DNA of 62,053 nucleotides, counting the filler, from Stramenopiles sp. TOSAG23-6 (taxonomy: Eukaryota), in NCBI GenBank assembly GCA_900128565.1. It is 23 parts of 23 records of this genome, joined end to end, with 100 filler letters (N's around TTAATTAATTAA, not from the genome) between each part and the next. Parts side by side here need not be neighbours in the genome. Positions count along the whole stretch, not along the records: positions 51,392 to 53,982 come from LT637931.1; 22 more parts are not named here. One strand, 5' to 3'. Below are positions 2,510 to 60,360 of the stretch, in pieces. Numbering within the stretch: the stretch's first letter is position 1; each line of letters begins with the position of its first letter. The notes below the pieces were generated by a model. It did no database searches and had not been told where the DNA came from. It worked only from the letters and a program-made list of their open reading frames with translations. Both the position numbers and the translations under genes were made by a program.

Positions 2510-2622
2510 ATGGCCTCATTGCAAAATTTACCAGTGTGGGAGACGTGCTACACGGAAGATGGTTATTGCTATTACCATAATACTGTCACAGAAGAATCCT
2601 CTTGGGAGTGGCCAGAAGGAGN
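2510..2622 (+). CDS. WW-domain protein, 5' fragment cut by contig end
   Basis: Manual translation MASLQNLPVWETCYTEDGYCYYHNTVTEESSWEWP matches the WW pattern W..YY.N..T..S.W..P. Confidence 0.75.
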
Positions 2623-2721
2623 NNNNNNNNNNNNNNNNNNNNNNNNNNNNNNNNNNNNNNNNNNNTTAATTAATTAANNNNNNNNNNNNNNNNNNNNNNN
2701 NNNNNNNNNNNNNNNNNNNNN
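2623..2721. other. Artificial contig linker (N-run, TTAATTAATTAA, N-run); first of 22 such linkers, spaced ~2.7 kb apart
   Basis: Identical all-frame-stop linker recurs at 5343, 8062, 10773, 13482, 16188, 18894, 21600, 24306, 27010, 29714, 32417, 35120, 37821, 40517, 43212, 45907, 48600, 51292, 53983, 56674 and 59364. Confidence 0.99.
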
Positions 2722-2775
2722 TACGAAATTTCGTACCTAACGAATTTTTTTTTGAAATATTTTTTCACAATACTT

Positions 2776-3514: not shown

Positions 3515-3753
3515 AAAAAAAATCAAAACAATACATGGACAATAAACACTAAAAAAACAAAAAACATTGAAACAAAAATCAAAACAATACATGGACAAAT
3601 AAATGATGATTTAGATATAATAAAAATGGTAATACTATTTTATAGTACTAGTACTTTATTCATTTATAATTTTTCTGATTTTTTTTTTAATTTTCTTTCC
3701 CATGACCGAATCTGAATTGATGTCTTCTTTTTTACTTTTTAAACCCTAACCCT

Positions 3754-5342
3754 TTAAAAACTCATCGAAAATGTATTGGTATTACTTAGAAGTACACTAT
3801 CAAAATATGAAAGTAATTCTTGTTGATTTCGTGTCTCTACAAGTAGTACATCAATATCTTTTCGACTAGAGATTTCTGCAATAATATGTTTGGGATGATC
3901 ACCAATGATTTTATTATACACAGCATCATACTCAACAACAACAATTTTATTATTTGTCCTTTTAAACGATTGAACAAGATCAGGACGACGAATAAATAGC
4001 AAATAAGGCAGTTTTAAGACATCATATATATCAAATAAATTTTCATAAATAGCTCTTTCTAATAATTTTTCATTATGGATAAAAACTCCGAGCAAATTCG
4101 GATTCGTGTCTGTTGTAGGGTTAGGGTTTCCACAATTAGGGTTAGGGCTATTTTGTACATTTAATAATTCAAATTGTAAATCCTTGTCGCGTAAAACACC
4201 CATTGACATTTCCACATCCATTCCAACACCAAATGATGTATATAATAAATCAATATCATTTCCAATTTTTAATTTTTTTTTTCTATTTGACAAATGATCA
4301 TATAACAATTTCTTATAAAAATCTGTAGGTACAGTTGCAGTAGGGTTAGGGTGAATTGTCCATGTAGAAGTGAAGATAAAATTAAAATTTTCACTCCATT
4401 TACGAAATAAAATTTTACAGTGATGTTTGTTTAGTGGTATATCAATGACAACATGTATATTTTTCTTTGTGCTTTTTTTGGGGTATACATCTGGTGCATT
4501 TTTAGGGTTTTTAGGGTTTTTAGGGTTAGGGTCAGGACTAGGTACATTTTTACTATAAAGTTCAAAAAAATTCAACATTAATTTTTGCATTTTTACAATT
4601 GAATTTAAATCTATTTTAAGTTTTGAAATCTTGTCAGTCTGTATTGTGAATATATATATATACTTTTAAAGTAAAATGATTTTTGTTAGACACAAAATTT
4701 TGAAGAAACAAAATATGAAAAAAAATTAATTTGAAAGAAACAAAATTTGAAAAAAAATTAATTTTCAAGAAACAAAATGTGAAAAAAATTAATTTTGAAA
4801 ATGTACTATTAAAGGTGAATAATGCTTTGTATCACATTTTGTATCAAATGTTGAAAAATTCAAACCTATGAATGAGATATGCGTAGTAGTACCGTTAACA
4901 TTGATTGGTGTTACTCTCATTTTTTTTTCAAATGACACTGTTGAAGTCTCTAATTTTTGTTGAATTTTACATGGAATTAGATTAGGGTTAGGGTTACATG
5001 GAAGCACAACTTCTCCAGGGGTATTATTATTAGTACGAGTTTGTTTTGTAACAACATTCACAGCATTCAACATATTATCATATAAATCTAGACGAATTTT
5101 AAATTGTTTTGATATCCAAGGGTGATGTATTGTAAACAAATATATATAATTGTGAAAAAAACACAAAAAATATCGTTAGGTACGAAGTTTCGTACGAAAA
5201 AAAACTTGGAAAAAACAAATTGAAAAAAAACTATATATATATATATGGATAAAATAATCGTTGGGTACCAAAAAAAATGTTTCAGACAAAAAAAAATAAA
5301 TTTGAAATTGATAATGAAAAAGTACATGATTTTGATTTCCAA
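3754..5342 (-). CDS. Hypothetical protein, 3' part, with PNPN inserts; family introns 5125-5325 (GT-AT) and 4639-4806 (GT-AG)
   Basis: ORFs 4789-5166 and 3754-4590 join in phase 0 across the 4639-4806 intron. No recognised domain. Confidence 0.6.
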
Positions 5343-5442
5343 NNNNNNNNNNNNNNNNNNNNNNNNNNNNNNNNNNNNNNNNNNNNTTAATTAATTAANN
5401 NNNNNNNNNNNNNNNNNNNNNNNNNNNNNNNNNNNNNNNNNN

Positions 5443-6228
5443 GAATATGTTGATAGAATTATGATTATTCATTTGTTTTATTATTCAGATATTGTATACA
5501 GTATATCTCGTATTTTACATGTATTACAAATATAACTACAACAAAGAATATGTTGATAGAGTTATGATTATTCATTTGGTTTATTATTCAGATATTGTAT
5601 ACATTATATCGCGTATTTTAATTTTGTTAGAAATAAAAGTACAACAAAGAATATGTTGATAGAATGATAATTATTTATTTGGTTTATTATTCAGATATTG
5701 TATACATGATATGCAGTATTTTAATTTTGTTACAAATCTAACTACAACAAAGAATATCTTGATAGAATGATGATTATTCATTTGGTTTATTATTCAGATA
5801 TTGTACACATTATATTGGGTATTTTAGATTTTGCTACAAATAAAACTACAGCAAAGAATATCTTGATAGAATGATGACTATTCATTTGATTTATAATTCA
5901 GATATTGTATACATGATATAACGTATTTTAATTTTGTTACAAATATAACTACAACAAAGAATATCTTGATAGAATAATGATTATTCATTTTATTTATAAT
6001 TCAGATATTGCATACATTATATTGGGTATTTTAGATTTATTACAAACATAACTGCAACAAAGAATATCTTGATAGAATTATGATTATTCATTTTATTTAT
6101 TATTCGGATATTGTATACATTATATCTTGCATTTTAGATTTATTACAAATATAACTACAACGAAGAATATCTTGATAAATTATGATTATTCATTTGGTTT
6201 ATTATTCAGATATTGTATACATGATATG
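5443..6228. repeat. AT-rich tandem repeat, ~103-bp unit, ~7.5 diverged copies
   Basis: GAATAT(G/C)TTGATAGAAT..GATTATTCATTTG..TTATTCAGATATTGTATAC recurs at about 5443, 5546, 5649, 5752, 5856, 5959, 6062 and 6165. Confidence 0.95.
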
Positions 6229-6669
6229 ATTAGGGTCGAGTACCACTTCGTTGTATGACTTATTTTGTTTTTTTCATTCCATTTTTTATTCCATTTTTCA
6301 TTAAATTTATTTTGTATTTTTCCTTAAATTTTTTTAAATATTTTTTAAATTTTATTTTACCCTTGGAGTGTCATGGGTCACAGTCACATTTTTATTTACA
6401 AGCTCTCCGCAGGAGTCCGCCTGAAGGGCATGTTAATCTATTACTCCAATTGTCCATTTTTATAATGAAGAAGAACAATAGAAACTACAACAATAAAATG
6501 AAACATAACTTGTGAAGAATAATGATAAATAAATACTTACACAATAGTATATTTTTTGGGTGTTATATTTTATTTTTAAATAAATTAGATTTATAAGAGA
6601 ATGACTCTCCTATTATTTTATTTATTTATCCCATCTTTTTTCTTTGTTGTACATAGATTTATATATACT

Positions 6670-8061
6670 TTACATTTCATCTGAATAGGATGACTCATCA
6701 CCATCATAATTATTGTTTTGTTGGCGTTGTTCAGATTGGAACATATTCCACAATATTCTACGAACATTTTGATAACCTCTATTACAAACAAAATTTTGAA
6801 ATCTTCTCATATCTCTTCTTTTGAAACCAAAATAAAACTTCTCATATAAGTGTAATGAACTCCAACAAACTCCAGCTTCCTTCATTCTATCCTGTACAAT
6901 ATAATCATTTAGAACCTCTTCATAGTGACGTTCTTCTGGTCCATGTGCTTGTATATCTTTTAATTCACTAATCATTTTAAAGATTAGTTTCAAAATATCT
7001 TTATGATTTGAATTATTTGAATCAATATTGGTATTTGTATTATTCTTGCTTTCACTATTACCATCACTGTATTCATTTACTTCTGCAGATCTATCTCGAT
7101 AATTTATAGCAATTCTTTCAACACTTTTATGCTTTTGTTGAGGGTTATCAAGATACCAATTAGGACTTCCTACATAATGACTTTTACTTTCACCATCATT
7201 ATAATCATCATTACATTGACTTTTACTTTCACTCTGATCATCACTGTTTTCATTTTCTTCTGAAAATGATGAATAATTATAATCATCATTACATTGACTT
7301 TTACTTTCACCATCATCATGAATGTTTTGTTGAGCTTCATCACCCAATTCAACATATTCACCACAATGTTCTAAAGTTTTGCATTGTTCTTCAAGTGGTT
7401 TAAATATCTTTTCATCAATATCTTGAATTGCAGATTCTACATCTGCTTTGAATTGTGATATTACATCTGTATTAGGGCAAGCTACATCACATTCTAACAT
7501 ATTGTACAAAATGAGATATATACTTTCACATCCTTTCTTATCAAGCACCTCTTCAAATATTGACATATCTCTATATTTGAAATTAGTATTAAAAAAGGTA
7601 AATAAATAAGCTGCAGTCCAATTAACTCTAGCTTTAATCATTAGTTCCTTTACAGCATCTACATTTAGAATATTCTCATATTGATGTTTTTGTGGTCCAT
7701 CTGATTGTATATCTTTTGATTCACTAATCTTTTCAAAGATTAGTTTCAAAATTTTTCTATGCGTTGGATTTTTTGAAAGAATAGTAGTATTATATGTATC
7801 ATATAATGATAAAATGCTTGAAGTAATATAATGCCTTGGTGTGACCCTAGAACCCACATAAGGTACATCACCCCCTTCATTAAAAGCACAGTCACCATCT
7901 GCAGCCTTTGGAATAGTAGCACATCTTTCACTCTGATCATCACTTTGTTTATTTTCAGATGCTAATGAGTTATAGCATGAAGGAAACCACTCTGTTGAAG
8001 ATGCTTTTAAAGGAGATACTGGTGCATCAGAATTACTATTATTATTATTTTTACTTTCACC
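6670..8061 (-). CDS. Hypothetical protein with an internally duplicated helical domain and GESKSQCNDDYN repeats (5' truncated)
   Basis: HRKILKLIFEKISESKDIQSDGP and HKDILKLIFKMISELKDIQAHGP are two copies of one domain. The frame appears to stay open upstream of 7857. Confidence 0.65.
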   Translation of the reverse strand, partial: GESKNNNNSNSDAPVSPLKASSTEWFPSCYNSLASENKQSDDQSERCATIPKAADGDCAFNEGGDVPYVGSRVTPRHYITSSILSLYDTYNTTILSKNPTHRKILKLIFEKISESKDIQSDGPQKHQYENILNVDAVKELMIKARVNWTAAYLFTFFNTNFKYRDMSIFEEVLDKKGCESIYLILYNMLECDVACPNTDVISQFKADVESAIQDIDEKIFKPLEEQCKTLEHCGEYVELGDEAQQNIHDDGESKSQCNDDYNYSSFSEENENSDDQSESKSQCNDDYNDGESKSHYVGSPNWYLDNPQQKHKSVERIAINYRDRSAEVNEYSDGNSESKNNTNTNIDSNNSNHKDILKLIFKMISELKDIQAHGPEERHYEEVLNDYIVQDRMKEAGVCWSSLHLYEKFYFGFKRRDMRRFQNFVCNRGYQNVRRILWNMFQSEQRQQNNNYDGDESSYSDEM

Positions 8062-8161
8062 NNNNNNNNNNNNNNNNNNNNNNNNNNNNNNNNNNNNNNN
8101 NNNNNTTAATTAATTAANNNNNNNNNNNNNNNNNNNNNNNNNNNNNNNNNNNNNNNNNNNN

Positions 8162-8796
8162 ATGACGACAGCAGGAATTGTAGTCACCCCTGCGCCTGCA
8201 ACAGCCAAGGCCATGCGAGGGTATATAATTTTAGCGCCGAGAGCAAGCATACTACCACCTGCTGCAAGTTTTCCCCCTCCTAATGCATAGACCAACCCAG
8301 TCGTGAATCCCGTACCAGCTGGCATATTAAACTGTAAAACATCTAAAACGTCGTTGGCTATAGCACTCAGATCTTCAGAATCTACTTTACCATCCTGATT
8401 ACGGTCGAGAGTACGATTGTAGTCTCGTTCAACAGCACGCCAGTTAACGTTAACATAGTCTAAATACGATAGTCCTTGAAGAAAAACAAAACTAAAACCT
8501 ATACTAGCTGCCGCAAAACGACCAGCTACTTTGAGAGCAAAGCCTGAGCAATAGCCTAGAGTTGATCCAAGCATAATCTGAGATCCCATTGGAACTAAAT
8601 TTGACGTGATAGACTTTGCAATAGCAGTCGGAGTCTGTGCTGCCAGTTCTTCTGCAGCAACTCTTCGCGCTTCAACCTCTGCCAGCACTTCATTCTTTTC
8701 AAGCATTTGTCTTTTCAGCTCTAACAATTCTTTACGCTGTTTATCTATTAGAATATCCGATGCCGATGGACCAAAAAAGAATGAATATATTCCCAT
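8162..8796 (-). CDS. FUN14-family mitochondrial outer-membrane protein (3' truncated)
   Basis: QIMLGSTLGYCSGFALKVAGR..G..F..LQ.LSY.DYVNVNW..VE and NMPAGTGF..G are FUN14 signatures. An EF-hand-like DRNQDGKVD loop is also present. Confidence 0.9.
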
Positions 8797-9170
8797 TGTA
8801 AAGATATTTATACACTCAGAAATTATAATTTGTTTTCTTGGAATTCTCTTTAAGAGTAAAAGAATGAGATTCATCAATTTGCAAGCACAAACACGTGTTT
8901 CTAAATAACATATATAACACACAAACCTGCTGCTTTAGGCTTTGCGGCTTTGTTTTTTTTGATTCAATGAGATTTATTTGATTGGCCATTTTTTNTACAC
9001 GTGTTCCATCAAGTTCTTCTGTTGTGGCATGTGTGTCTACTACGAACTACTAGNTNCTACTACTGTAGTACTAACTACTAGTACAGGTACTCTACGTAGT
9101 TAGTTAGCATCTACTACTACTAGTTTATTAGAATACTATATATTGCTGTCTTAGAATATCTCTACCNTAN

Positions 9171-10772
9171 ATGACTGCGTTACGCATTGCATATGCTTCG
9201 TCGCAGTACCTAGTACGTAAGGCTACGCATATATCAGGTGCTCACCACCGACAAATACGACCACTCACTCTAATTCAAAGTGTNCTTAATTACCATATAA
9301 GNACGGTCACAAATNTACGTCAACANGGAACGCGTCAGAATGGGCATGTGAATCGTTCTGTACAGAACCTTGGCAAACAAAAGAACCAAAAGAACCTTGG
9401 CAAACAAAATGCAGCTCTGGACTTTCAATTGCTGAGTCCAAAAATGGTGAAACAAATTTGGCAGAATTTNTACGAGTCTTTATCCAATGACACTTTAAAA
9501 GCAAAAACCTGCTTCAATGCGATCAAGATTTGTCTTAGCACTGCCGATATGATTCACATAGCATTTGATATTATGCCAAGAAAAGGCTTATTACCAAGGA
9601 GAAGTATTAGAGATTTCATTGCTACTCGATTTCTATTAGAGGGTGATATAAATGGCGCAACGAATTTCCTAAATTCACCTGTCCCAAAGTTCAGTACAAC
9701 TGAATTACAACTTCTTCGTGATACATCAAAAAGTCGTAGAAAAGATGTGTATGACTTATTATATACAAAACCTTTTATTGACAATAGTTTGGGTAGTATA
9801 AAAAATGCAGAAAATGTTGATCATCTAGACGAAAATGCTGATCAACTAGACATTACAAACAAAAATAACAAAAATAACAAAAATAACAAAAATGTATTAA
9901 GCCCACCATCGTTTAGACAAGCTCATCTCAGGCAATGTCGAGAAAAACTTTTAGAGTTTTTCATAAATTGCAATGAACACCAAGCTGCGTGGGATTTTTT
10001 CCATAAATTAGAAAAAAATCAAAAACTTGTAAGTTTTATTTTTTTTTACCGAAAAAAAAAAAAAAAAAAAATCGATTTTTTTTTCATAGTAAATTTTGTA
10101 CCTAACGATTTTTTTGGTAAAAAAATTTTGAAATATTTTTCCAAAATATATACGACGCCTCTCTGTTCATTGATATTACGTTGTTGTTATGGTTGGAATG
10201 ATTATCAATATGTCATTGACCATATTATGAAAAAACATAACCTCAAAATGGATGTTGGTATCTTTTATAACTTAATTACGCTGTTACGAATTGAAGGAAA
10301 CAAACCTGCCGTTCAAGCTTTAATTGACACCGCAATGTATGTTTTATTTTATTTTTTTTTTTTGGTTTAAAAAAAAAAAAAAAAAATGGATTTTTTTTTT
10401 TGTACGAAATTTCGTACCTAACAAATTTTTTAAAAATTTTTTTGGAATATTTTTCCAAAAAACATGCCAGCGAATAATGTAAAACCGACTAAATTAATAT
10501 ATGAAGTTTTAGATCGTGAAGAACCAAGTTTTAGACGAATGGCAACGTCAATCATTAAACAACATGTTTTTTCTAACAACGTGACTCGTACGTTTTCATT
10601 ATTTTTTTTTTTTGGTTTCGTACGAAATTTTGTACCTAATAACAAAAATAACAAAAATATTTTCGTTTTCATTATTTTTTTTTTTACAAAAAAAATTAAA
10701 ATTTTTTTTTTCGTACGAAATTTTGTACCTAATAACAAAAATGTTTTTGATTTTTTTTCACAAAACATGTTT
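9171..10772 (+). CDS. Helical-repeat (PPR-like) protein with a possible mitochondrial presequence; family introns 10029-10151, 10337-10465, 10588-10768
   Basis: PPR-like segments MKKHNLKMDVGIFYNLITLLRIEG and MPANNVKPT; Arg/Ser-rich N-terminus. Confidence 0.6.
10029..10151 (+). mobile_element. Family intron (GT...AT)
   Basis: The same site holds a 107-nt variant (42484-42590) in the second copy of this contig, which delimits the insertion. Confidence 0.85.
10337..10465 (+). mobile_element. Family intron (GT...AT, flanking AT duplication)
   Basis: Removal gives DTA-M-PANNVKP. The next AG (10470) gives ATC GAA TAA. Confidence 0.8.
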
Positions 10773-10992
10773 NNNNNNNNNNNNNNNNNNNNNNNNNNNN
10801 NNNNNNNNNNNNNNNNTTAATTAATTAANNNNNNNNNNNNNNNNNNNNNNNNNNNNNNNNNNNNNNNNNNNNATGTTCTTTTTTTTTTTTTACAAAAAAA
10901 TTCGATTTTTTTTTTTTGGTTTCGTACGAAATTTTGTACCTAACAATTTTTTTTTTGGTAAAAAAATTTTGAAATATTTTTCCAAAAAACAG

Positions 10993-11427
10993 TAACACAA
11001 GATGAAGATGTTCTTGATACATGGTTTTCCTCTTCATTATTACCACTCAGTGCATTAGGATGGCCAAATAATAACCCTAACGCTACTCATTCTAATCGAT
11101 ATCCTCTTGATGTAATGGAAACCGGATGTTTGTTTTCATCATGAATTTTTTTTTTTTTTTCATACGAAATTTCGTACCTAACAAAAAACTTTTTTTTCTA
11201 CATTTTTTTTTTTTTTTTTCACAATACATCGGATATTTTGTTTTTTTGGGTAGCTCGAATGGCAATGATTTGTTCTGAATTAAACCCTAACCCTAACTCT
11301 AATGATGATGAAAATAGAAATCATCCATTTAATCGAATTTTACTTCATCCTATGGTACGAGATCGATCTGGTAGAAAAATGTCAAAAAGTTTAGGAAATG
11401 TGATTGATCCAAATCATGTACGTGTTT

Positions 11428-11466
<39 letters not shown>

Positions 11467-11515
11467 GGCAAAATTAAAATTTTTTTTTTTTTTTTTTTTT
11501 TTTCTAGCAAAAATA

Positions 11516-11546
<31 letters not shown>

Positions 11547-12090
11547 ACTATGAATTTTTGTATTTTATTAATTTTTTGAAATATGTTTGAAAAATATCCT
11601 CTATAGTATATGTCATTAATGGTATATCTCTGCAAACATTACTCTCAAATTTAGAAATTGGGAATTTAAACAAGAATGAAATCAAATTGGCAACAAAAAC
11701 AATGAAAATGGAATTTCCACAAGGCATGTATGTTTTTTTTTTTTTTTTTTTTTTTATTTTTCCAAAATACATTCCTGAGTGTGGAAGTGATGCGTTGAGG
11801 TTTACATTATTAACATATTTACAACAAGGAACTAATATTAACATGGATATTGGTAGAGTTGTAACACACAGGCAATTTGGTAATAAAATATGGCAAGCTA
11901 CAAAATTTGCATTACAACATCGAATTTCTCCTTTAAACCCTAACCCTAATTCAACAATTCCAACAACAGTTGAAATGTTATTTGATGCAAAGAATAATAG
12001 TACTATCAATTTTGATACACTGAAAGATTCAGGGTTTCTACATCAATGGATTTTATCAAGATTAGCATGTATGTTATTTCATCATGAATT

Positions 12091-12129
<39 letters not shown>

Positions 12130-13322
12130 GTAAAAAAAATTTTGTACCTAACAAATTTTTCAAATTTCAATTTTTTTTTTGTATGAAAATTTTGTACCTA
12201 ACAAATTTAAAAAAAAAATAAAAATATTTTTCTACATAAAAGACACTACTGAAACTGTCAATAAAAGTCTTGAAATTTTTGATGTTTCAGCAGCTGCAAA
12301 AAGTATTCATTCTTTTATACAAAATGATTTATGTGGTACTTTTATAGAATGGTCTAAACCAATTTTGAATACAAAAAATAACCCTAACCCTAGTAACCCT
12401 AACCCTAGTTGTGTAATGACGGGTTCGTATGAAATAACTACAACAATTTTACATATTTCTTTAGAAGCATCTTTACGTTTAATGCATCCATTTATGCCTT
12501 TTATTACTGAAGAATTATGGCAAAAATTACCACTTAATAACCCTAACCCTAATTCCAGTAGAAACCCTAACCCTAATTCCAGTAGAAACCCTAACCCTAG
12601 AGAAAATTTGGAATGTTTGAAAAATGTTTCAAAAATAACAAAATCAAATAATGATAAAACGTCTATAATGATGTCAGCGTTTCCAACGACATGCTCTAAC
12701 ACTGCAAAAATATGTGGTACACATTCCATTGATTTGTTATATGATAAAAATGTTGAAACGAAAATGTAAGGTTTTTTTTTTCGTAGTAAATTTTGTACCT
12801 AACAATTTTTTTTTTTTTTTTTTTTTTTTTGACAAAAAAAAATATGTTAAAATTTCATACCTAACAAAAAAAATTTCAAAAAATATTTTTTACTATTACA
12901 TGGAAACATTACTCTCTGTATATAGAGGTGTTCTATCATTACGAAAACAAGCTAGAGATTTAGGTGTTTCAGTAGAAAATACAAAAGATATTGTAGTAGA
13001 TATTACTATAAACCCTAACCCTAGTACAATTTCAAAAAAATCAAAAATTTCAAAAATTTCAAAAAAATCAAAAATTTCAGAAAAATCAAAAATTTCAAAA
13101 AAATCAAACCCGTCTACAAATAATAATAATAATAATAATGATGGAATGGATGAAAAAAAATTGATTCTTTTGTATAAAAAATCTCTACTTGAAAGATGTC
13201 AACTCAATTCTATTGATATACACACGAAATCTGACGTACACACGAAATCTTTACAAAATGAAAAATCTTTGGTGTATGTTATGAATGATTGCTGCACCAT
13301 TCGATTACCCGTTTCTCTTGAT
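10993..13322 (+). CDS. VARS: Valyl-tRNA synthetase, C-terminal half (exons 10993-11127, 11230-11417, 11612-11727, 11773-12068, 12243-12765, 12902-13322)
   Basis: [59 protein letters not shown] and [15 protein letters not shown] motifs. Confidence 0.95.
11128..11229 (+). mobile_element. Family intron (GT...AT) in ValRS
   Basis: Removal restores [15 protein letters not shown] exactly. There is no AG near the junction. Confidence 0.92.
11418..11611 (+). mobile_element. Family intron (GT...AT) in ValRS, poly-T expanded
   Basis: Removal restores [15 protein letters not shown]. The TAG 5 nt upstream would frameshift. Confidence 0.85.
11728..11772 (+). mobile_element. Family intron (GT...AT) in ValRS; interior probably collapsed by assembly
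   Basis: Removal restores [15 protein letters not shown]. Confidence 0.9.
12069..12242 (+). mobile_element. Family intron (GT...AG) in ValRS with duplicated branch core
   Basis: Removal restores WILSRLA-x-TTETVN spacing. The AG sits at the same distance from AAATATTTTT as the AT of other copies. Confidence 0.75.
12766..12901 (+). mobile_element. Family intron (GT...AT) in ValRS
   Basis: Removal joins VETK-M-ETLLSV in frame. Confidence 0.8.
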
Positions 13323-13669
13323 GTACGTTTTATTTTTTTTTTACAGAAAAATTGATTTTTTTTTTTTTTTTTTTTCATACGAAATTTTGTACCTAACAAA
13401 TTTAAGTTTTTTTTGTAAAACTGTAGATTTTTTTTTTTTTTTTTTTTTTTAAATTCAAAAAAAATTTTTTTTTTTTTTTTTNNNNNNNNNNNNNNNNNNN
13501 NNNNNNNNNNNNNNNNNNNNNNNNNTTAATTAATTAANNNNNNNNNNNNNNNNNNNNNNNNNNNNNNNNNNNNNNNNNNNNTTTTGGAAAAATATTTCAA
13601 AAAAAAATCGTTAGGTATAAAATTTCGTACGAAAAAAAATTCGAATTTGAAAAAAAAAATAAAACATAC

Positions 13670-14788
13670 ATTAACGTCAATGCGTCTGTCATCGTCAGTA
13701 TCCACATCTTCAAAAAGATCCCATAATTTATTAAAGTAGTAAATATTTCGTAAAAGAGAGGCAAATTCTCTTTTTTCAACCCAAGAATCTCCATCACCAC
13801 CACCCGCTTTTGACGTAGTCCTTTTGTATGCTCTCATGAGAGCAGGTTTGTTGTTAAACTTTTCAAAACTTGGTACGCTTGTTATCCACTTATCAATTTC
13901 AGCTAAGGAACAGATTCCATTTCCGTTAAAATCAAGTTGTTTCCACATCTTTCGTAAATTATCTTTTGATGATAACGCTTCTTCTAGCTTTTTATCTTCA
14001 ACGGTTCGTGCAGCTATCAGGAATGAAGGAAGTGCAGCTCGACTTTCGTTAGGGTTAGGATTTTCATTATTTTCATTCCCTTGGGAAGTATCATCTTCAA
14101 CTTGATTCTTTGACCAAGCTTGTTTTCGTACTTCAGCAGGTTTATGTCCATTGAGACTTGATGTATGACCATTAAGCTTAGGTTTGTGACCATTCAGAGC
14201 AGGTTTTGATCGTACAGGACCTTTTCTTGGAGGAGGACCTCGAAATCCTTTTCTTTGTCGGAGAGGTGAATTAGTTCTACTCAATTGAGCTGCCTTTCCA
14301 GAAACGTATTTACAGAATTCATCGAACAAAATTTGACCCCCACCATTTGTATCAATTTTGTTAAATTCTTTGTCTGAATTTAAAACTGTCATTTTTACAC
14401 CCAATTTTGTCAAACCTTTATGAAATTCGGTTGGGTCAACTCGCCTATCATCGCCCGTATCAATATCTTCAAAAATATTCCAGAGTTTATTGAAATAGTA
14501 GATATTCCTGAGTAGTGGTACGAATTGTTTCTTTTGAACAAATTCAGTGTTATTTTCTTTCGCGGTAGCCTTGAATGCACGAATTAGAGCAGGTTTATTG
14601 TTGAACTTTTCAAAACCTTGGAAGGTTTGAATGAATTTATCCACTTCTGCCAGAGAACAAATTCCGTTGCCGTTTAAGTCCAATTTCTTCCACATTTCTC
14701 TCAGCTTTGTTTTTGTTTTTAACAGCTTGTCTATTTGGCTATCTTCTATCGATTTGACATTGTCTAAGATAGATCCACCAGCTCCCAT
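13670..14788 (-). CDS. N-myristoylated tandem EF-hand protein resembling flagellar calcium-binding protein (3' truncated at a family intron starting 13669)
   Basis: MGAGGS start. Two copies of W..LD.NGNGICSLAE.DK..KPAL.RA...LRNIYYFNKLW..FED.DT.DDRR. Confidence 0.85.
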
Positions 14789-16517: not shown

Positions 16518-17361
16518 TTACCCTACATAAAAACAATTTGTTGTCGAGGTTAATAAATCACGAGCCTTATCAAAATAATATCCCTCTAATAATAGACGAA
16601 CATCTTCTAATAAAATTCCTTTATTCTCTGGATCGTTGATCATGTATTACGAAAAATATTTCAAAAAAAAAATTACAATTTGTTAGGTACAAAANTTNGT
16701 ACGAAAAAAAAAAANTANTAANCAAAANTATGATGAAAACGTATATATCTTCAAGTAGCTCCAATGTGTCATATCGCATAGATGCTAATTTCATTCCTTG
16801 TAAAATACCTCTTACTTGATTACAGCTAAATCCTCCTTCTATTTTATCCTTAATAACGCGTATGACATCTTTTTGATCAGAAGCTTGTTCGAGATTTTCC
16901 ATAACTTTTTTCAGTTCCTCGGGACAAAGATTTGGTGTCGCTTTGCAACGCCTGTGTTGCCAAAACCATTGGCGTGTTGCATCGACAACCCCTGATTCTA
17001 TTGACCCACAAGAATCAGCTCTACGAATTGTCTTTGCAACAGTACTTGAAAGATGAGGGAGTCCACTGTTCACAAGTGTGCCCATCGTAATCGTTTTGCA
17101 GTTTCCTTGCAATGTAGAACTGACTGAGGTAGGTAAAACTTCCCCATATGTTACTGGAGCGGATAGAACTTGTTGACGTGGGAGGACTGTTTCGTTCGAA
17201 ATAGATGCAGCTGGAGGAAGCATTGGTGGAGGACTATCTAAAAGACACAGCTTATAACGATTTTTCAAAAGTTCAACAGCTTCCTCTAAAGTCTCGTCTG
17301 TCATTCTGTTGAGCATGCCAACTGCCTCGGCGATATGATCAGCACGGGATTTTTGAGACAT
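16518..17361 (-). CDS. Protein with C-terminal DUF4476-like domain; family intron 16642-16744 (AT-start)
   Basis: FSCNQVRGIL..RYDTLELLED-M-INDPENKGIL after splicing resembles DUF4476. Confidence 0.65.
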
Positions 17362-27771: not shown

Positions 27772-29291
27772 ATGGAAAGTAACGCGTTGTACCAGGAAAG
27801 ACTTTCGTCTTACCAACGAAAATTATTGAGACGCCGCGTTTTCAATAACACTTTGCAGAAAAGAGTAGGTTTGACAAATAGTGATATCGAAAAATATGAG
27901 AAAAATCGGGCTACCAAAAACAACAAATACCTTGGCAATGGAAAATTAGGTTTTATGTATACTCTTCGAGAAGACCTTTATGCAGAAGATACTAGAGTCA
28001 CTGATACGAAGAATAGATGGTACGGAAATTCTATGCCATTGAGTAGTCATAAGAAAAAGACAGATGTGGAAAGGTTGGTGCATGCCTTAGAAAAGACTCC
28101 TCAATGTCTATCTTTATCGCGAGAAATTCAAATTCAATCAATGTTGCGATCTCTGACTTATGCTGGAATATCGGGGAAAAACTACGAATTGGCGTTTAAA
28201 AGATTTGACCGAGATGGCGATAGCTTAATAGGATTTGACGATTTTGTTGTGACTTTTCGTAAATTTATTCGGAAAAAAGTAAGTGAAGAAGAATTAGCAT
28301 CATATTTCTGTATTATGGATGACACTGAAGATGGATATATAGATTTAAATGAATTTACAAAAGCTTTGGAGGAAGATTTAGTTGTAAATGGGTTTGTACG
28401 TTTTTTTTTTCTCAATTTCAATTGCTTCTTTTTCATAGAAAATTCCGTACTTATACATTTTTTTTCTAAAAATATTTTTTCCCACTACATTCAGACCGCA
28501 GACGAGCAACTCCATGTACGCTTCAAAATTATTTAGACGTGATGAGCCTCATCCATCAAAAAGAAATCGAAAATAAACGGTATGAAGAGGCATCCACTCG
28601 AAGTGAAGAAGGAAATCCAGCGAGTGAGATTTTGAATAATCCATCGACAGATTCAATCGGAAACAAAACTAAAAATTCAAAACGTGATTTTCGCAATTTC
28701 AATATTATGCAACTTATAGCCTTTTATACAGCCTGTGAGAGGAAATACGCAAATGCAGAATTCACTTCAGATTTACTCAATCGTTGGAAGTTTCGCGAGC
28801 AAGATCTATGTAACAAACTATGTGAGAAATACAACAGAAAAATTCATCTATTGACAACAACTGATGAGGAGAGTGCAAACATTAATTTGAAAACAGGAGG
28901 TAGCACAGTACAAGAAACATCATATAAAAAAGACGAATTACAAAAAAGAATGAAACAGAAATCGATTGCATTTCAAAAAAGTACACACAACTTTCTAAAA
29001 AAGAAAAATATACCCACAATAATAGATCGTGCTCGATCAAGATTAAGAGGATTAACGTATGTCGATACTTCTGGACAAAATTATGCACTAGCATTCAGAC
29101 GTTTAGATAAGGATAAAGATGGCAATATTAGCTTTCAAGATTTTGAGTCGTCAGCAAAACGAACTTTAGGAATGAAAATATCCGTGGAAGAAATGCAGCG
29201 ATTATTCAAGGCAATTGATGCTGATAACAATGGGGTCATTGCCTTTGACGAATTTGTAGAGTTCATTCAAAATGAAGTTCGAATAACTTAG
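27772..29291 (+). CDS. EF-hand protein with duplicated EF-hand pair; family intron 28396-28490 (GT...AT)
   Basis: LR.LTY...SG.NY.LAF.R.D.D.DG repeated twice. The two ORFs join in phase 0. Confidence 0.85.
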
Positions 29292-29813: not shown

Positions 29814-30486
29814 AAAAAATCTAAAAAAATTTGTTAGGTACAAAATTTCGTACGAAAAAAAAATTNANTTCNAANTNAAAAAAAAAAAATAAAACATACA
29901 TTTGATAATTTCATTACAATGTGTTCCTTTCCAATGTGGAGAACAATTACATTTACAACTTTTATTGCCATTTGCATCTGTCGTTTCTTCAATCCATCCA
30001 TTATTACATTTAAATGTATCAGTTACACATAATGAAGTTTGTTCAGTGCAATGACGTCCATATATTGTGAAAAATATTTTTTTTTTGTTATATTTTTTGT
30101 TAGGTACAAAATTTCGTACGAAAAAAAAAACACAAATTAGAAATTGAAAAAAAAAAAACGTCCACTCCAACCATTTGTACATTTACACCAACAAGAGCCA
30201 AATAATCCATGAACAATTCCATTTTTACAATAAAATCCTCCATTTTCTTGTCCATTGGCATTTTTTTGTTCTTTTACAGAATTGACTGCATAACACATTT
30301 TTGGCTGACACTTTCCAAAATAATTCATTTCATAATTTAAATCACAATTACAATAATATTTTGATGATGTAGTTGATATACTTGTACAAGTACCACCAGA
30401 ACCACAAGTATTTGCTTTACATATTGAATGACATTGTTTTAATTTCCATTTACCTATTTTTGTAACTTGGTCATACACACACTTCA
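29814..30486 (-). repeat. Inverted duplicate of 31744-32416 (fold-back, likely an amplification or assembly chimera)
   Basis: Reverse-complement identity, including the N positions. Confidence 0.9.
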
Positions 30487-32330
30487 ATAATAATGGTCAA
30501 AACAAGAATAATCAAAAATATCAAATTGATTATAGTTATGGTGTTCTACAAGTGATATCACCTTGTCAACCCTCTTTTAAATGTATTTCAGTGAATCATA
30601 TGGAAATTGGTACTACAATACAAATTCAAAATGGTGTGTGTTACCCGGGACCATGTAAATATGTTTGTCGTAATGGGTATACACCACAGAGTGGTCGTGT
30701 TGATTGTGTGCATAATCCAAATAGCGATTATGGAAAATTTATTCTAAAAGATGAATGTAAACCAAAATATAAATGCGAATTTGATAATAATTTGTATGAA
30801 AAGGAGTTAAAATCGCAATTACAAAACAAATATTTGGACTTTTCTGAAAAAATTAAAAAAGATCACTTCTGTTACCCGGGTATCTGCTCTCATGTTTGTT
30901 CCTCTGGGTATACGGGTGGTAGTATTCGTTGTACACACAACGAACAACAGGATAAACCGATTTGGGAATTTGAACCTTGTTATTCAATAGATAAGCAATG
31001 TGATACAAACAACAAAACAAAAGTGATAAACGAATTTCAAATATCTGAAATTTCAACACCTTGTAAAGTTGGACGAACCTGTAAACATAAATGTATTGAT
31101 GGTTACATCAATGGGTCTGTATTCTGTGATAAAAATGCTCATTTAAGTTACAAACCATGTATCAAAGATCATGTACAATGTCTTGTTAATAACATTAAGG
31201 ATTTTAAAACATCCAATATGATGTTTATTCAACAAAAATGTGTTCAAGGTGTCTGTGATCATTTTTGTCTCAATGGATATGAAAAAGGTGAAGTTATATG
31301 TAGTTCTAATGGTACTTTTTCAATAACGCCATGTAAAAAAATCATAAAGAATGGAAATGGAAATGTTTGTTGTAAAGCACTTACGTTAAGCTGTCTTTCA
31401 TGTGGGTTAAATCTGACCGAGGCAGAATATTGTACAATGTGTAAAAATCAGCATGATAAACACACGTGTCATTCCGTATGTACTCAAAATAAGATTTCCT
31501 CATGTGGTCTCGGCTATACTCGAAATTCAAATACACAAAAATGTATACCTCATTTTTATTGTACCGAAAAAACGTATTTACCTAAATATACTACAAATAA
31601 TCAATTATATAATATTGTCCTTGACGAAAATTCTAGACAAAAATGTACTTCAAATATTTCTGCATATCAAGTCAATACTAATGATAATTCATCGATTAGT
31701 GCCTGCCAATTTAACTGCCTTCCAGGGTTTGTTGGTGGTGATATGAAGTGTGTGTATGACCAAGTTACAAAAATAGGTAAATGGAAATTAAAACAATGTC
31801 ATTCAATATGTAAAGCAAATACTTGTGGTTCTGGTGGTACTTGTACAAGTATATCAACTACATCATCAAAATATTATTGTAATTGTGATTTAAATTATGA
31901 AATGAATTATTTTGGAAAGTGTCAGCCAAAAATGTGTTATGCAGTCAATTCTGTAAAAGAACAAAAAAATGCCAATGGACAAGAAAATGGAGGATTTTAT
32001 TGTAAAAATGGAATTGTTCATGGATTATTTGGCTCTTGTTGGTGTAAATGTACAAATGGTTGGAGTGGACGTTTTTTTTTTTTCAATTTCTAATTTGTGT
32101 TTTTTTTTTCGTACGAAATTTTGTACCTAACAAAAAATATAACAAAAAAAAAATATTTTTCACAATATATGGACGTCATTGCACTGAACAAACTTCATTA
32201 TGTGTAACTGATACATTTAAATGTAATAATGGATGGATTGAAGAAACGACAGATGCAAATGGCAATAAAAGTTGTAAATGTAATTGTTCTCCACATTGGA
32301 AAGGAACACATTGTAATGAAATTATCAAAT
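30487..32330 (+). CDS. Cys-rich extracellular protein with EGF-like and sushi-like modules, fragment; family intron ~32067-32170
   Basis: C..GY.GG...C repeats and EGF motifs C.C.NGWSGRHC and C.CSPHWKGTHC. Confidence 0.8.
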
Positions 32331-40616: not shown

Positions 40617-41251
40617 ATGACGACAGCAGGAATTGTAGTCACCCCTGCGCCTGCAACAGCCAAGGCCATGCGAGGGTATATAATTTTAGCGCCGAGAGCA
40701 AGCATACTACCACCTGCTGCAAGTTTTCCCCCTCCTAATGCATAGACCAACCCAGTCGTGAATCCCGTACCAGCTGGCATATTAAACTGTAAAACATCTA
40801 AAACGTCGTTGGCTATAGCACTCAGATCTTCAGAATCTACTTTACCATCCTGATTACGGTCGAGAGTACGATTGTAGTCTCGTTCAACAGCACGCCAGTT
40901 AACGTTAACATAGTCTAAATACGATAGTCCTTGAAGAAAAACAAAACTAAAACCTATACTAGCTGCCGCAAAACGACCAGCTACTTTGAGAGCAAAGCCT
41001 GAGCAATAGCCTAGAGTTGATCCAAGCATAATCTGAGATCCCATTGGAACTAAATTTGACGTGATAGACTTTGCAATAGCAGTCGGAGTCTGTGCTGCCA
41101 GTTCTTCTGCAGCAACTCTTCGCGCTTCAACCTCTGCCAGCACTTCATTCTTTTCAAGCATTTGTCTTTTCAGCTCTAACAATTCTTTACGCTGTTTATC
41201 TATTAGAATATCCGATGCCGATGGACCAAAAAAGAATGAATATATTCCCAT
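40617..41251 (-). CDS. FUN14-family protein (duplicate copy)
   Basis: Identical to 8162-8796. Confidence 0.9.
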
Positions 41252-41625
41252 TGTAAAGATATTTATACACTCAGAAATTATAATTTGTTTTCTTGGAATT
41301 CTCTTTAAGAGTAAAAGAATGAGATTCATCAATTTGCAAGCACAAACACGTGTTTCTAAATAACATATATAACACACAAACCTGCTGCTTTAGGCTTTGC
41401 GGCTTTGTTTTTTTTGATTCAATGAGATTTATTTGATTGGCCATTTTTTNTACACGTGTTCCATCAAGTTCTTCTGTTGTGGCATGTGTGTCTACTACGA
41501 ACTACTAGNTNCTACTACTGTAGTACTAACTACTAGTACAGGTACTCTACGTAGTTAGTTAGCATCTACTACTACTAGTTTATTAGAATACTATATATTG
41601 CTGTCTTAGAATATCTCTACCNTAN

Positions 41626-43211
41626 ATGACTGCGTTACGCATTGCATATGCTTCGTCGCAGTACCTAGTACGTAAGGCTACGCATATATCAGGTGCTCAC
41701 CACCGACAAATACGACCACTCACTCTAATTCAAAGTGTNCTTAATTACCATATAAGNACGGTCACAAATNTACGTCAACANGGAACGCGTCAGAATGGGC
41801 ATGTGAATCGTTCTGTACAGAACCTTGGCAAACAAAAGAACCAAAAGAACCTTGGCAAACAAAATGCAGCTCTGGACTTTCAATTGCTGAGTCCAAAAAT
41901 GGTGAAACAAATTTGGCAGAATTTNTACGAGTCTTTATCCAATGACACTTTAAAAGCAAAAACCTGCTTCAATGCGATCAAGATTTGTCTTAGCACTGCC
42001 GATATGATTCACATAGCATTTGATATTATGCCAAGAAAAGGCTTATTACCAAGGAGAAGTATTAGAGATTTCATTGCTACTCGATTTCTATTAGAGGGTG
42101 ATATAAATGGCGCAACGAATTTCCTAAATTCACCTGTCCCAAAGTTCAGTACAACTGAATTACAACTTCTTCGTGATACATCAAAAAGTCGTAGAAAAGA
42201 TGTGTATGACTTATTATATACAAAACCTTTTATTGACAATAGTTTGGGTAGTATAAAAAATGCAGAAAATGTTGATCATCTAGACGAAAATGCTGATCAA
42301 CTAGACATTACAAACAAAAATAACAAAAATAACAAAAATAACAAAAATGTATTAAGCCCACCATCGTTTAGACAAGCTCATCTCAGGCAATGTCGAGAAA
42401 AACTTTTAGAGTTTTTCATAAATTGTAATGAACACCAAGCTGCGTGGGATTTTTTTCATAAATTAGAAAAAAATCAAAAACTTGTATGTTTAAAAAAAAA
42501 AAAAAAAAAAATCCATTTTTTTTTTCATAGTAAATTTTGTACCTAACGATTTTTTTTAGAAAATTTTTGAAATATTTTTTCAAAATACATACGACTCCTC
42601 TCTGTTCATTGATATTACGTTGTTGTTATGGTTGGAATGATTATCAATATGTCATTGACCATATTATGAAAAAACATAACCTCAAAATGGATGTTGGTAT
42701 CTTTTATAACTTAATTACGCTGTTACGAATTGAAGGAAACAAACCTGCCGTTCAAGCTTTAATTGACACCGCAATGTATGTTTTATTTTATTTTTTTTTT
42801 TTGGTTTAAAAAAAAAAAAAAAAAATGGATTTTTTTTTTTGTACGAAATTTCGTACCTAACAAATTTTTTAAAAATTTTTTTGGAATATTTTTCCAAAAA
42901 ACATGCCAGCGAATAATGTAAAACCGACTAAATTAATATATGAAGTTTTAGATCGTGAAGAACCAAGTTTTAGACGAATGGCAACGTCAATCATTAAACA
43001 ACATGTTTTTTCTAACAACGTGACTCGTACGTTTTCATTATTTTTTTTTTTTGGTTTCGTACGAAATTTTGTACCTAATAACAAAAATAACAAAAATATT
43101 TTCGTTTTCATTATTTTTTTTTTTACAAAAAAAATTAAAATTTTTTTTTTCGTACGAAATTTTGTACCTAATAACAAAAATGTTTTTGATTTTTTTTCAC
43201 AAAACATGTTT
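41626..43211 (+). CDS. PPR-like protein (duplicate copy)
   Basis: Same protein as 9171-10772 after removing introns, the first being 42484-42590. Confidence 0.6.
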
Positions 43212-51391: not shown

Positions 51392-51545
51392 ATTGTACAG
51401 ATTACTTGCAGTATTTTTGTTTTTATTCAAAAGATGAATGATGTTTGGTTTTACATGATAGAAATGTTTATTTATTTCAAATACTATTGACATATTATAC
51501 AGATTACTTGCAGTATGATTGTTTTTATTCAAAAGTTGAATGATG
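51392..51545. repeat. End of an AT-rich ~102-bp tandem repeat
   Basis: TACAGATTACTTGCAGTAT..TTGTTTTTATTCAAAAG.TGAATGATGT repeated at 102-bp spacing. Confidence 0.7.
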
Positions 51546-51633
51546 TAGACATATTCTATGGATTATTCAGTGTATTTTTGAAGCCCAAGTCTTTTTTTCT
51601 TATTAGGCGTAGGGTTGACCAAAATTAATTTTT

Positions 51634-52814
51634 TTATAAATTTAATTTAGGTGACAATTCAAATAGAAAATATTCTGTACAAATATTTTCCCCTCTTTCC
51701 ACTCTACCACTTTCTTTATGATTTGATAAAATTGAAAATCCAAATTGTTTAGCTGTGTTTAAAATATATATAGTGGAATGTATGAAACGTCCATTTTTAT
51801 TTAATTCCCATTCAAATTGTTCATTTTTATTGAATTCTTTTTGGTCATTTTTATTGAATTCTGTTTTTTCATTTTTATAACTTGACAAAGTATCATTTTT
51901 ATTACTTGACAAAGTATTATTCTTTGTAAAAAAACATTCAGTACTACATAAAAACATTAAACGATAATATTGGTCCACTTGATATTGTTTCCTACGAATA
52001 GAATACCCGGTAACAATTGCTTCAAAAATAGAAGATACATCACCAAAATAAACTAAAACATCTGCAGCTACAACTAAATCAATAATTTGAGTATTAGTTT
52101 CATTCATGATATATTTTTGACTATTATTATATTTATGTAATAAAGATGATATCATAATAGAATCATCAATTTCACCCACCAAAACTTCATCATATATTTT
52201 GTATTTCAAATGATTCTGTTCTTCATTTTTTCTATTACGTGCAATAGTAACCATTTTCGGTGATATATCGATACCTATGGTTTTTCTGGCTATTCCATGA
52301 AATGCTAATCCTAAAAGTCCAGTTCCACAACCCAAGTCAAGAAGTATATCTACAATAAAATTTGTATTTAATGTTTTATTATTTTTATGAATTGTTGGGT
52401 ATTTTTTATTATTTTTATGAAAATTATTATTATTTTTATGAAAATTATTATTATTATTATCATCATTATTATCATCATTAGTAGTACTACAATTATCAGT
52501 ATTATTACAATTATCATCATTATCATCATTAGTAGTACAATGATTACTATTATAAAAATCATCATGATTATCAAAAAGAGTATTATTAAAATAAGATTTA
52601 AAATGTTTTAAAAGTATATCAGGTACTTTATATCGTAATCCTTTATTAGAACTATTTGATTCATTTGTTAACATCACTGAATCAAATTCATCAGAAAAGT
52701 CATCAAACAATTTTTGTATATACGAAATAAATTGTTAAAAAAATATTTCAAATTCAAAAAGTGTACTTTTTGTTAGGTAATTTGAGAAATACAATGTAGG
52801 ATAAAAACTTTAAC

Positions 52815-52845
<31 letters not shown>

Positions 52846-53878
52846 TTTTTTTAGGCAAAAAATTTCTTATAAAAAAAAAAACATTCGAAATAAATTAGGA
52901 AAACATACATGGGTGCCTTTTTTACCTTTTTCATCTTTTTCAAACGTTTATTATTTGAAAATTGTAAAGAATGCAACATATGAATAGCTGTAGCTAATGT
53001 TGCATTTTTATGAGCATGTAAACGCTTATTAAAACGAAGTGTATGAAGCATAGAACTCTTTTCATTTGACGTTTGAAATTGATTAATTACATCTTCATAT
53101 AGAATTGCTGCATCATAAAAATACTATGAAAAAATATTAAAAAAATATTTTGTTTTCGTTAGGTACAAAATTTCGTACGAAAAAAAAACTTTTGTAAAAA
53201 ATTAAAAATGATGAAAACGTATAATTCGCCTTTTTCATGTAATAAAGTAGCTAAATTATGCATCGTATCAATATGAGTAGGTGCAATATCCAAAGCTCTT
53301 CTCAATAAATTCTCTGCACCTTGCATCGAATATTTTTTTAGTGAAATTGCATGTGCATTCAACACATTAGCATTACACGAAATATCTTTACATAGAAAGA
53401 GACATTGTTCAAAACTATATTCTGCTTCAACATTTCTATTAAAATGGAAGAGTAGTATACTATGTATTTTGGGAAAATATTTTTTTTTTTTTGTTTAAAA
53501 AAAAAAGTTTTTTGTTAGGTACAAAATTTCGTATGAAAAATAAATAAATTTAAATTTAAATTTAAAATTGATCCTGAGAAAACATATATGTTGTATGATT
53601 GCATCTATATTTGAAGAATCATTTTGAATTGCTTTTTCAAAAAAATCAAATGCAGTTTCAAAATTAGCATTATTTTGATATAATATACCAAGATTTGTAA
53701 GAATGGAACTTTGTGTTTTTCGTGTTTTTCGTGTTTTTCGTGTTTTTTGTTCAAGTTGCAATGCTGTTTGAAATGCAATTTCAGCTTCTTTGAAAGAAAT
53801 GTCTGATATGAGAGGTTCATCGCTAAGAGCAACACCAAAATTTAATAAATGTTTTGATAACTCTCTTTGTTTGGGAGC
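51634..53878 (-). CDS. TPR-repeat SAM-dependent methyltransferase; family introns 53462-53587, 53119-53222, 52727-52908
   Basis: TPR helices, AP-I-SYIQKLFDDFS..FD, LDLGCGTGL, GIDISPKM, DLVVAADVLVYFGD and GRF.HS..YI motifs. Confidence 0.88.
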
Positions 53879-53921
53879 AAGTATTGTACACAAATATTTT
53901 CAAACATTTGAAAATGGTTAG

Positions 53922-53958
<37 letters not shown>

Positions 53959-54082
53959 TAAAAAAAATTGAAAAAAAAAAAANNNNNNNNNNNNNNNNNN
54001 NNNNNNNNNNNNNNNNNNNNNNNNNNTTAATTAATTAANNNNNNNNNNNNNNNNNNNNNNNNNNNNNNNNNNNNNNNNNNNN

Positions 54083-57003: not shown

Positions 57004-57847
57004 TTACCCTACATAAAAACAATTTGTTGTCGAGGTTAATAAATCACGAGCCTTATCAAAATAATATCCCTCTAATAATAGACGAACATCTTCTAATAAA
57101 ATTCCTTTATTCTCTGGATCGTTGATCATGTATTACGAAAAATATTTCAAAAAAAAAATTACAATTTGTTAGGTACAAAATTTNGTACGAAAAAAAAAAA
57201 NTANTAANCAAAAATATGATGAAAACGTATATATCTTCAAGTAGCTCCAATGTGTCATATCGCATAGATGCTAATTTCATTCCTTGTAAAATACCTCTTA
57301 CTTGATTACAGCTAAATCCTCCTTCTATTTTATCCTTAATAACGCGTATGACATCTTTTTGATCAGAAGCTTGTTCGAGATTTTCCATAACTTTTTTCAG
57401 TTCCTCGGGACAAAGATTTGGTGTCGCTTTGCAACGCCTGTGTTGCCAAAACCATTGGCGTGTTGCATCGACAACCCCTGATTCTATTGACCCACAAGAA
57501 TCAGCTCTACGAATTGTCTTTGCAACAGTACTTGAAAGATGAGGGAGTCCACTGTTCACAAGTGTGCCCATCGTAATCGTTTTGCAGTTTCCTTGCAATG
57601 TAGAACTGACTGAGGTAGGTAAAACTTCCCCATATGTTACTGGAGCGGATAGAACTTGTTGACGTGGGAGGACTGTTTCGTTCGAAATAGATGCAGCTGG
57701 AGGAAGCATTGGTGGAGGACTATCTAAAAGACACAGCTTATAACGATTTTTCAAAAGTTCAACAGCTTCCTCTAAAGTCTCGTCTGTCATTCTGTTGAGC
57801 ATGCCAACTGCCTCGGCGATATGATCAGCACGGGATTTTTGAGACAT
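57004..57847 (-). CDS. DUF4476-like protein (duplicate copy); intron 57128-57230
   Basis: Same as 16518-17361. Confidence 0.65.
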
Positions 57848-60213: not shown

Positions 60214-60360
60214 AATTTCGAATTTAGTTTTTTTTTTCGTACGAAATTTTGTACCTAACAAATTTCGAATTTAGTTTTTTTTTTCGTACGAAATTTTGTA
60301 CCTAACAAATTTCGAATTTAGTTTTTTTTTTCGTACGAAATTTTGTACCTAACAAATTTC
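60214..60360 (+). repeat. Triple tandem copy of the ~46-bp intron core
   Basis: AATTTCGAATTTAG(T)nCGTACGAAATTTTGTACCTAACA three times. Confidence 0.9.

Follow-up and report, generated by a model that had tools for sequence, protein, structure and literature searches.

The introns described here are best compared with introners, i.e. transposon-derived introns, and with a few other classes that depart from the GT-AG rule. According to the available part of the report on Amoebophrya, most of its introners are not GT-AG introns, have border direct repeats of 3–5 nt and carry inverted repeats of 8–20 nt that form hairpins (PMC7789003). Those of Micromonas and Aureococcus, as far as the accessible sections of the sources describe them, have canonical splice sites, terminal repeats and target-site duplications (PMC7789003, PMC12130899). 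The MITE-derived introns of Fritillaria borealis commonly have AG-AC or AG-AT ends, and the text at hand states that the major spliceosome is thought to remove them (PMC11282704). A MITE origin is also suggested, in the parts of the literature available to us, for the nonconventional and intermediate introns of euglenids and the noncanonical introns of hemistasiid diplonemids (PMC6221363, PMC12621601, PMC11282704).

The DNA analyzed here, hereafter the window, is a stretch of 62 kb (62,053 nucleotides) from an assembly labeled as a stramenopile. It is a chain of ~2.6 kb contigs joined by 22 linkers, each N-TTAATTAATTAA-N, and is AT-rich, with a G+C content of 23–37% per 2 kb. The sole near-identical protein in a large protein database, P0001, models the valyl-tRNA synthetase contig (window 10873–13481), and its source label, which starts with GSMAST32, suggests that the host is a MAST-3-type marine stramenopile. 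A diplonemid host, considered because noncanonical introns have been described in marine diplonemids, was discarded in view of this label. The contig at 51392–53982, which carries a gene for a TPR-methyltransferase, was found nearly whole in two small DNA runs from one sample and in small part in marine metagenomes and metatranscriptomes.

A family of related introns occurs throughout this window, in genes as unrelated as those for the valyl-tRNA synthetase, a WD40 protein and the TPR-methyltransferase; from a reading of the ORFs by eye, an EGF-like protein and a chloride-channel-like ORF are likely further hosts. Its core motif, GTACCTAAC, has 62 matches in the window at up to one mismatch, against 6.5 expected. 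From 5' to 3', the members share GTAYGT, a T-rich stretch, a 12-nt palindrome, a CTAAC box located 33–53 nt from the 3' end, and a 3' box ending in ACAT. Our sample consists of 25 distinct members with both ends fixed, duplicate contigs being counted once; two of them were picked up by scanning the window with position weights, a scan that demanded an in-frame join and that returned these two extra G-start members and no A-start member. Family introns have a median length of 105 nt (range 45–201), and 23 of the 25 have a YTRAY branch motif, which is missing in 11728–11772 (45 nt) and 28396–28490.

The unusual feature of the family lies in its ends. The terminal dinucleotides are GT..AT in 17 members, GT..TT in two, AT..AT in two, AT..TT in one, GT..AG in two and GG..AT in one, so that 23 of the 25 end without AG and the other two have AG at the family position, while the 5' dinucleotide is GT in 21, AT in three and GG in one. 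Position +1 (G in 22, A in three) is thus not more conserved than +2 or +3, each of which has one variant. The three A-start introns begin with ATACGT or ATATGT at 53587 and 53222, in the TPR-methyltransferase gene, and at 16744, repeated at 57230, with sequences and coordinates exactly as a preliminary description of this DNA had given them. That description offered, as one of two options, a relaxed interaction between the first and last G, which agrees with our count, since a pairing cannot be required where 23 of 25 members have no final G. An association of the +1 base with the last base, which it suggested checking, found no support: all three A-starts end in T, yet so do 20 of the 22 G-starts.

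As far as the available parts of the reports allow a comparison, the family resembles the Amoebophrya introners in its unrelated host genes, short border direct repeats, candidate inverted-repeat ends, mostly non-GT-AG ends and absence of an internal transposase. It differs in having a conserved 5' GTAYGT and a conserved 3' box, where the same partial account gives no preferred end dinucleotides for Amoebophrya (PMC7789003), and also in that its complementary ends span only ~4 bp, its repeat is 2 nt and its host is, by label, a stramenopile. With the introners of Micromonas and Aureococcus, the latter likewise a stramenopile, it shares high-copy, near-identical introns and, going by the sections at hand, one copy of the target-site duplication, putative here, that stays in the mRNA; unlike them, it lacks AG in 23 of 25 members and +1 G in three of 25. 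The F. borealis introns, as presented in the accessible text, are also transposon-derived and also escape GT-AG, but their odd end is the 5' one, whereas here it is the 3' end and a 5' GT is kept in 21 of 25. Introns of euglenids and hemistasiids, in the excerpts available, share with the family the missing 3' AG and border repeats like target-site duplications; however, their borders are unconserved, with stable GC-rich end pairing, whereas the borders here are conserved and AT-rich, with no stable fold predicted. Set against these systems as the accessible reports describe them, three traits distinguish the family: its 5' site and its 3' box are both strongly conserved, its repeat measures only 2 nt, and a stable hairpin is missing.

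We consider it slightly better than an even bet that nothing sets the A-start introns apart from the rest of a high-copy family of introners derived from a transposon, and that they are cut at ends fixed by the family, probably by the major spliceosome. The observed base of this reading is family membership, the non-AG ends, the 2-nt direct repeat and the fixed cut positions. In the mechanism that we propose, the 5' cut would fall before the first base of RTAYGT and the 3' cut after the conserved terminal box ending in AT or TT, rarely AG. The 3' site would be chosen by this box, not by scanning for AG, perhaps aided by the 4-bp complementarity of GTAT and ATAC, which would leave the last two bases unpaired. 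The major spliceosome could recognize the introns by their yeast-like GTAYGT and, in those members that have it, by the CTAAC box, although these two elements may be conserved because the copies share a recent ancestor and not because of function. With a non-AG 3' end, pairing of the first and last G would be out of use already, and a +1 change from G to A could then be tolerated and persist without killing the host gene. In a genome rich in AT, G to A is the change to be expected most often.

The features on which the argument turns are collected in Table 1.

Table 1. Introns, exons and motifs discussed in the text, with positions in the window
Feature	Positions	Strand	Evidence or remark
A-start intron 1 of TPR-methyltransferase gene, 126 nt, ATATGT ... 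ACAT, exon flank AT	53462..53587	-	sequence, frames, homologs
A-start intron 2 of TPR-methyltransferase gene, 104 nt, ATACGT ... TATTT, exon flank TT	53119..53222	-	sequence, frames, homologs
TPR-methyltransferase exon A	53588..53899	-	TPR_1 match, E 7.8e-08
TPR-methyltransferase exon B, between both A-start introns	53223..53461	-	TPR matches
TPR-methyltransferase exon C	52909..53118	-	open frame
G-start family intron of TPR-methyltransferase gene, GTATGT ... TTTAT	52727..52908	-	junction gapless vs P0056
TPR-methyltransferase exon D, SAM-methyltransferase domain	51634..52726	-	Methyltransf_25/11/12/31
Core motif GTACCTAAC in A-start intron 2	53158..53166	-	also at 53514-53522 (A-start intron 1) and 16682-16690
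A-start intron, 103 nt, ATACGT ... ACAT, gene with weak DUF4476 match	16642..16744	-	sequence, frame, family rule
Copy of the 16744 intron in duplicate contig	57128..57230	-	same locus assembled twice, not independent
Family intron, valyl-tRNA synthetase	11128..11229	+	removal gives gapless alignment to four homologs over conserved motif
Family intron, valyl-tRNA synthetase, GTACGT ... GTATAT	11418..11611	+	family ends gapless vs four homologs
Minimal member, valyl-tRNA synthetase, 45 nt: two termini and T run, without CTAAC box	11728..11772	+	junction gapless vs homologs

We infer removal of the introns at the family ends from reading frames and homology. Cuts aligned by the family fuse the longest flanking frames in 22 of the 24 testable members (binomial p 4e-9 against an expectation of one in three), or in 20 of 22 when the two scan-selected members are set aside. 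The exceptions are 12069, which stands outside the 25 members and works with an AG 5 nt beyond the family end, and 25944, for which the cut is one base out. In some members an AG lies 12–17 nt past the CTAAC box, but its use leads to a stop or a frameshift (partly checked by hand), so the first AG does not mark the 3' site.

The valyl-tRNA synthetase also bears on these ends. When the gene was spliced in silico at the family ends and the product aligned with four homologs, its three junctions listed in Table 1 were gapless over strongly conserved motifs, and they were so with the family ends only, which argues that the non-AG ends are real. Excision of the 45-nt member brings back a conserved synthetase motif; the termini thus seem to be the necessary parts of the intron. 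By comparison, the GT-AG gene model behind P0001 has eight conserved residues deleted, three inserted and three replaced relative to the same homologs. The eight residues are lost at 11128–11229, while at 11418 the model uses an in-frame reading from the GT at +5 to an AG, adding three residues that are missing from all four homologs. This intron is the nearest parallel to the one at 53222, which has an in-frame alternative of the same kind.

A second regularity of the family is a short direct repeat. The last two bases of the upstream exon equal the last two bases of the intron in 17 of the 25 members (permutation p 0.004), including all three A-start introns, and the TT-ending members with a known flank are preceded by exon TT in three of three cases (Fisher p 0.004). 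Because TT cannot pair with TT, the repeat points to a target-site duplication and not to base pairing, and it would be a 2-bp duplication left by insertion. One consequence is that the mRNA stays identical when both cuts are moved upstream by two bases. Of the labels AT..AT and AT..TT in the preliminary description, what stands is that A-start members of the family exist; the register that the labels imply is not fixed by the sequence, and in the shifted one the introns at 53587 and 16744 would be AT..AC and that at 53222 TT..AT.

The true cuts might accordingly lie two bases upstream, which would put the A-for-G change at +3 instead of +1 and make AT..AC introns of most members and of two of the three A-starts. 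AT..AC ends are a known splicing-compatible pair, and the two registers give the same mRNA in the 17 members with the repeat, all three A-starts among them; a hand tabulation of the shifted register gave AT..AC in 13 of the 25 and an AC end in 18. The flank differs from the last two intron bases in eight members, 15587, 10029, 28396 and 3171 among them. One informative junction is that at 15587 in the WD40 gene, where the unshifted register places threonine, the usual residue before glycine in WD40 repeats, before a glycine, and the shifted register places isoleucine there. Moreover, in the shifted register members with TT, TC, CT, AC or TA flanks would begin with those dinucleotides, and the intron at 53222 would turn into TT..AT. 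We regard this shift as rather unlikely.

In the TPR-methyltransferase gene, removal of the A-start introns at the family ends joins frames of 104 and 100 codons at 53587 and of 90 and 88 codons at 53222; together with 16744, the longest flanking frames are joined in all three cases, so the sensible frames noted in the preliminary description are borne out, and at the two TPR-methyltransferase junctions homology favors them as well. Each of the four exons has an open frame, and the methyltransferase motif is preserved. We built three in-silico mRNAs, one with the family cuts of the preliminary description, one with 53222 read from the GT at +5 to the AG that precedes the family end by 5 nt, and one with 53587 read from the GT at +5 to an AC, and compared them with homologs retrieved via the methyltransferase exon. 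The collinear homolog P0056 aligned over residues 62 to 264 with zero gaps at all three junctions when the family cuts were used. These cuts also place the alanine of TPR position 20, a consensus feature of the TPR, in register in four of four repeats (checked by hand). A search with exon B among longer proteins found no spliced or modeled protein of this gene.

The same comparison bears on the possibility that the GT at +5 simply serves as the 5' splice site of the A-start copies, with the 3' ends just named for 53222 and 53587 and a downstream AG for 16744, which would add or swap 2–6 residues. Such readings are in frame for all three A-starts by hand check, the one at 16744 being GT..AG, and the P0001 gene model applies the same kind of reading at 11418. 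However, the family cut outscores the in-frame GT..AG reading of 53222 in 43 of 45 homologs and the GT..AC reading of 53587 in 37 of 45, the GT readings break the P0056 spacing, use of a nearby AG at 53587 is out of frame, and the parallel reading at 11418 carries the three extra residues against four homologs. We give cutting at +5 a slim chance overall, though it may apply at 16744.

A different concern is that the +1 A arose through faulty assembly or amplification, or else by a disabling mutation of recent date, such that the introns stay unspliced and the genes are dead or dying. G to A is the commonest type of error as well as of mutation, the 16744 intron contains several ambiguous bases, and two of the three A-starts share one gene, so that the TPR-methyltransferase gene could be decaying. 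Independent DNA bears on the +1 A at 53587, the one A-start it covers: a metagenome contig over 53579–53915, ~1% diverged (three differences in 337 bases, two of them placed), lists no change at 53587, which makes it improbable that single-cell amplification introduced the A at this site. In addition, the exons of both A-start genes are all open, and a random error is unlikely to strike one position three times among 25 members. Error or gene death as the explanation is quite improbable in our estimate.

The junction at 16744 draws on the joined frames (242 and 40 codons), the family rule and a weak hint from Pfam. Positions 2–61 of the 91 in the DUF4476 profile are matched and stop at the end of the exon before 16744, with an E-value of 0.014 that is below threshold. 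A protein search with exon 1 for spliced or modeled homologs was empty, as was a Pfam search with exon 2 even at E 10.

Excision by a route other than the spliceosome, as in euglenids, would have the paired ends recognized and cut with a 2-nt stagger. The 5' GTAT can pair with the ATAC just before the last two bases, in the introns at 53222 and 11418 a change at one end is matched by a change at the other (A with T and C with G, respectively), and the 45-nt member suggests that termini suffice. However, the candidate terminal inverted repeats GTAT/ATAC, and hence the terminal helix, span just 4 bp; fold predictions for nine introns gave z-scores of −1.8 to +1.4, no better than shuffles, with the terminal helix in two predictions only; and pairing of +1 to +4 with −3 to −6 reached 81 of 100 pairs, not above shuffles (p 0.09). 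The TT/TT repeats are identical, not complementary, and the family borders are conserved where those of euglenids are not. This route has little probability, and given the weak folds and chance-level pairing we do not claim a structural mechanism for the family.

In U12-type introns, the +1 base is typically either A or G, the 3' ends are loose, and the branch motif lies ~10–15 nt from the 3' end. That a remodeled minor (U12-type) spliceosome removes the family, as the preliminary description had offered, found no support and is highly improbable: the family shares A or G at +1 and several tolerated 3' dinucleotides with U12-type AT-AC introns, but has neither their defining 5' motif (RTATCCTT, reported as missing and indeed matched in the window only twice, at one duplicated locus and at no family intron, against 4.3 expected) nor their branch motif near the 3' end (TCCTTRAY, 10 matches in the window against 9.9 expected), its CTAAC box lies farther upstream, and the 62 kb, a very small sample, contained no Rfam match to snRNAs including U11, U12 and U6atac, either at the gathering score or with the E-value limit relaxed to 1. 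No spliceosome genes were seen in the 62-kb window.

Returning to transposon-derived introns cut at family ends, the evidence for high copy number comes from read depth. The core stretch at 53132–53218 has a depth of 482 to 14,699 in four marine runs, against 0 to ~230 for the remainder of the contig, which marks the family as a high-copy repeat. The core motif also lies within 130 nt of 20 of the 44 contig ends at the 22 linkers, and the assembly seems to have been broken at these repeated introns. A metagenome scan with a 19-nt core found four loci, of which one is a family member, with a G-start. This member, in the public metagenome contig L003:1-619, is typical in being flanked by AT and ending in ACAT, and places the family beyond the source assembly.

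The depth excess of 53132–53218 over its flanking exons was seen across metagenome and metatranscriptome contigs alike. In RNA libraries, the core signal could come from unspliced RNA, excised introns or DNA carry-over. No RNA contig crosses any intron of contig 51392–53982; the RNA contigs are exon pieces and the repeated core only, so that their coverage of this contig says nothing either way about splicing.

A broader reading, which we put forward tentatively and somewhat below even odds, is that a MAST-3-like stramenopile cuts most of its introns at non-AG sites set by the terminal box, needing neither terminal G, and that these introns come from a recent miniature transposon with a 2-bp footprint. 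If true, no earlier stramenopile would be known, as far as our literature search reaches, whose introns are mainly non-canonical, and the poor gene models of such single-cell assemblies would be explained. In the full-text search, no paper dealing with non-canonical introns of MAST-3 came up; in a report on single-cell stramenopiles the word "canonical" is absent from the main text, though its supplements could bear on the point (PMC5778133).

The wider interest is in how a 3' splice site is chosen. The terminal guanines of introns belong to the least variable positions of eukaryotic genes because they touch in the second splicing step. A family in which nearly every member is missing the last G, and about one copy in eight the first G, offers a natural series for studying 3' site choice free of AG, in which the A-start copies are a modest yet telling detail of a more interesting whole. 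On the practical side, mis-splicing like that in P0001 may be widespread in the gene sets of such assemblies, and gene counts, possibly also claims of gene loss, may be distorted. As described in the available part of one account, introner surveys start from annotated introns and drop families with unfamiliar splice sites that lack RNA support (PMC12130899). Surveys built in this way would miss a family like the present one.

Several other observations were made in the window. The internal core, palindrome plus CTAAC box, is present in two or three tandem copies inside the introns at 60251–60353, 10632–10733 and 12144–12202, with a period of 47 nt in the first of these. The member at 32067–32170 (= 30060–30163, minus strand) starts with GG in the family register and carries a 6-nt direct repeat at each end; with this repeat the cut can slide over seven positions, and removal of the intron restores the cysteine spacing of the EGF-like protein, as read by eye. 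The contigs at 8162–10772 and 40617–43211 are identical but for 27 alignment columns, all within 9971–10157, in and beside one family intron, and including GTAAGT versus GTATGT and a 15-nt indel; these differences could be allelic, or the repeat could have led to a different assembly of the two copies. Finally, the telomere-like hexamer AACCCT occurs in runs within coding exons, at 11280–11300, 11935–11950, 12378–12408 and 12540–12600 and in other exons. The runs translate as N-P-N-P and are insertions relative to the valyl-tRNA synthetase homologs, and NPNP stretches of a like kind occur in several further ORFs of the window.
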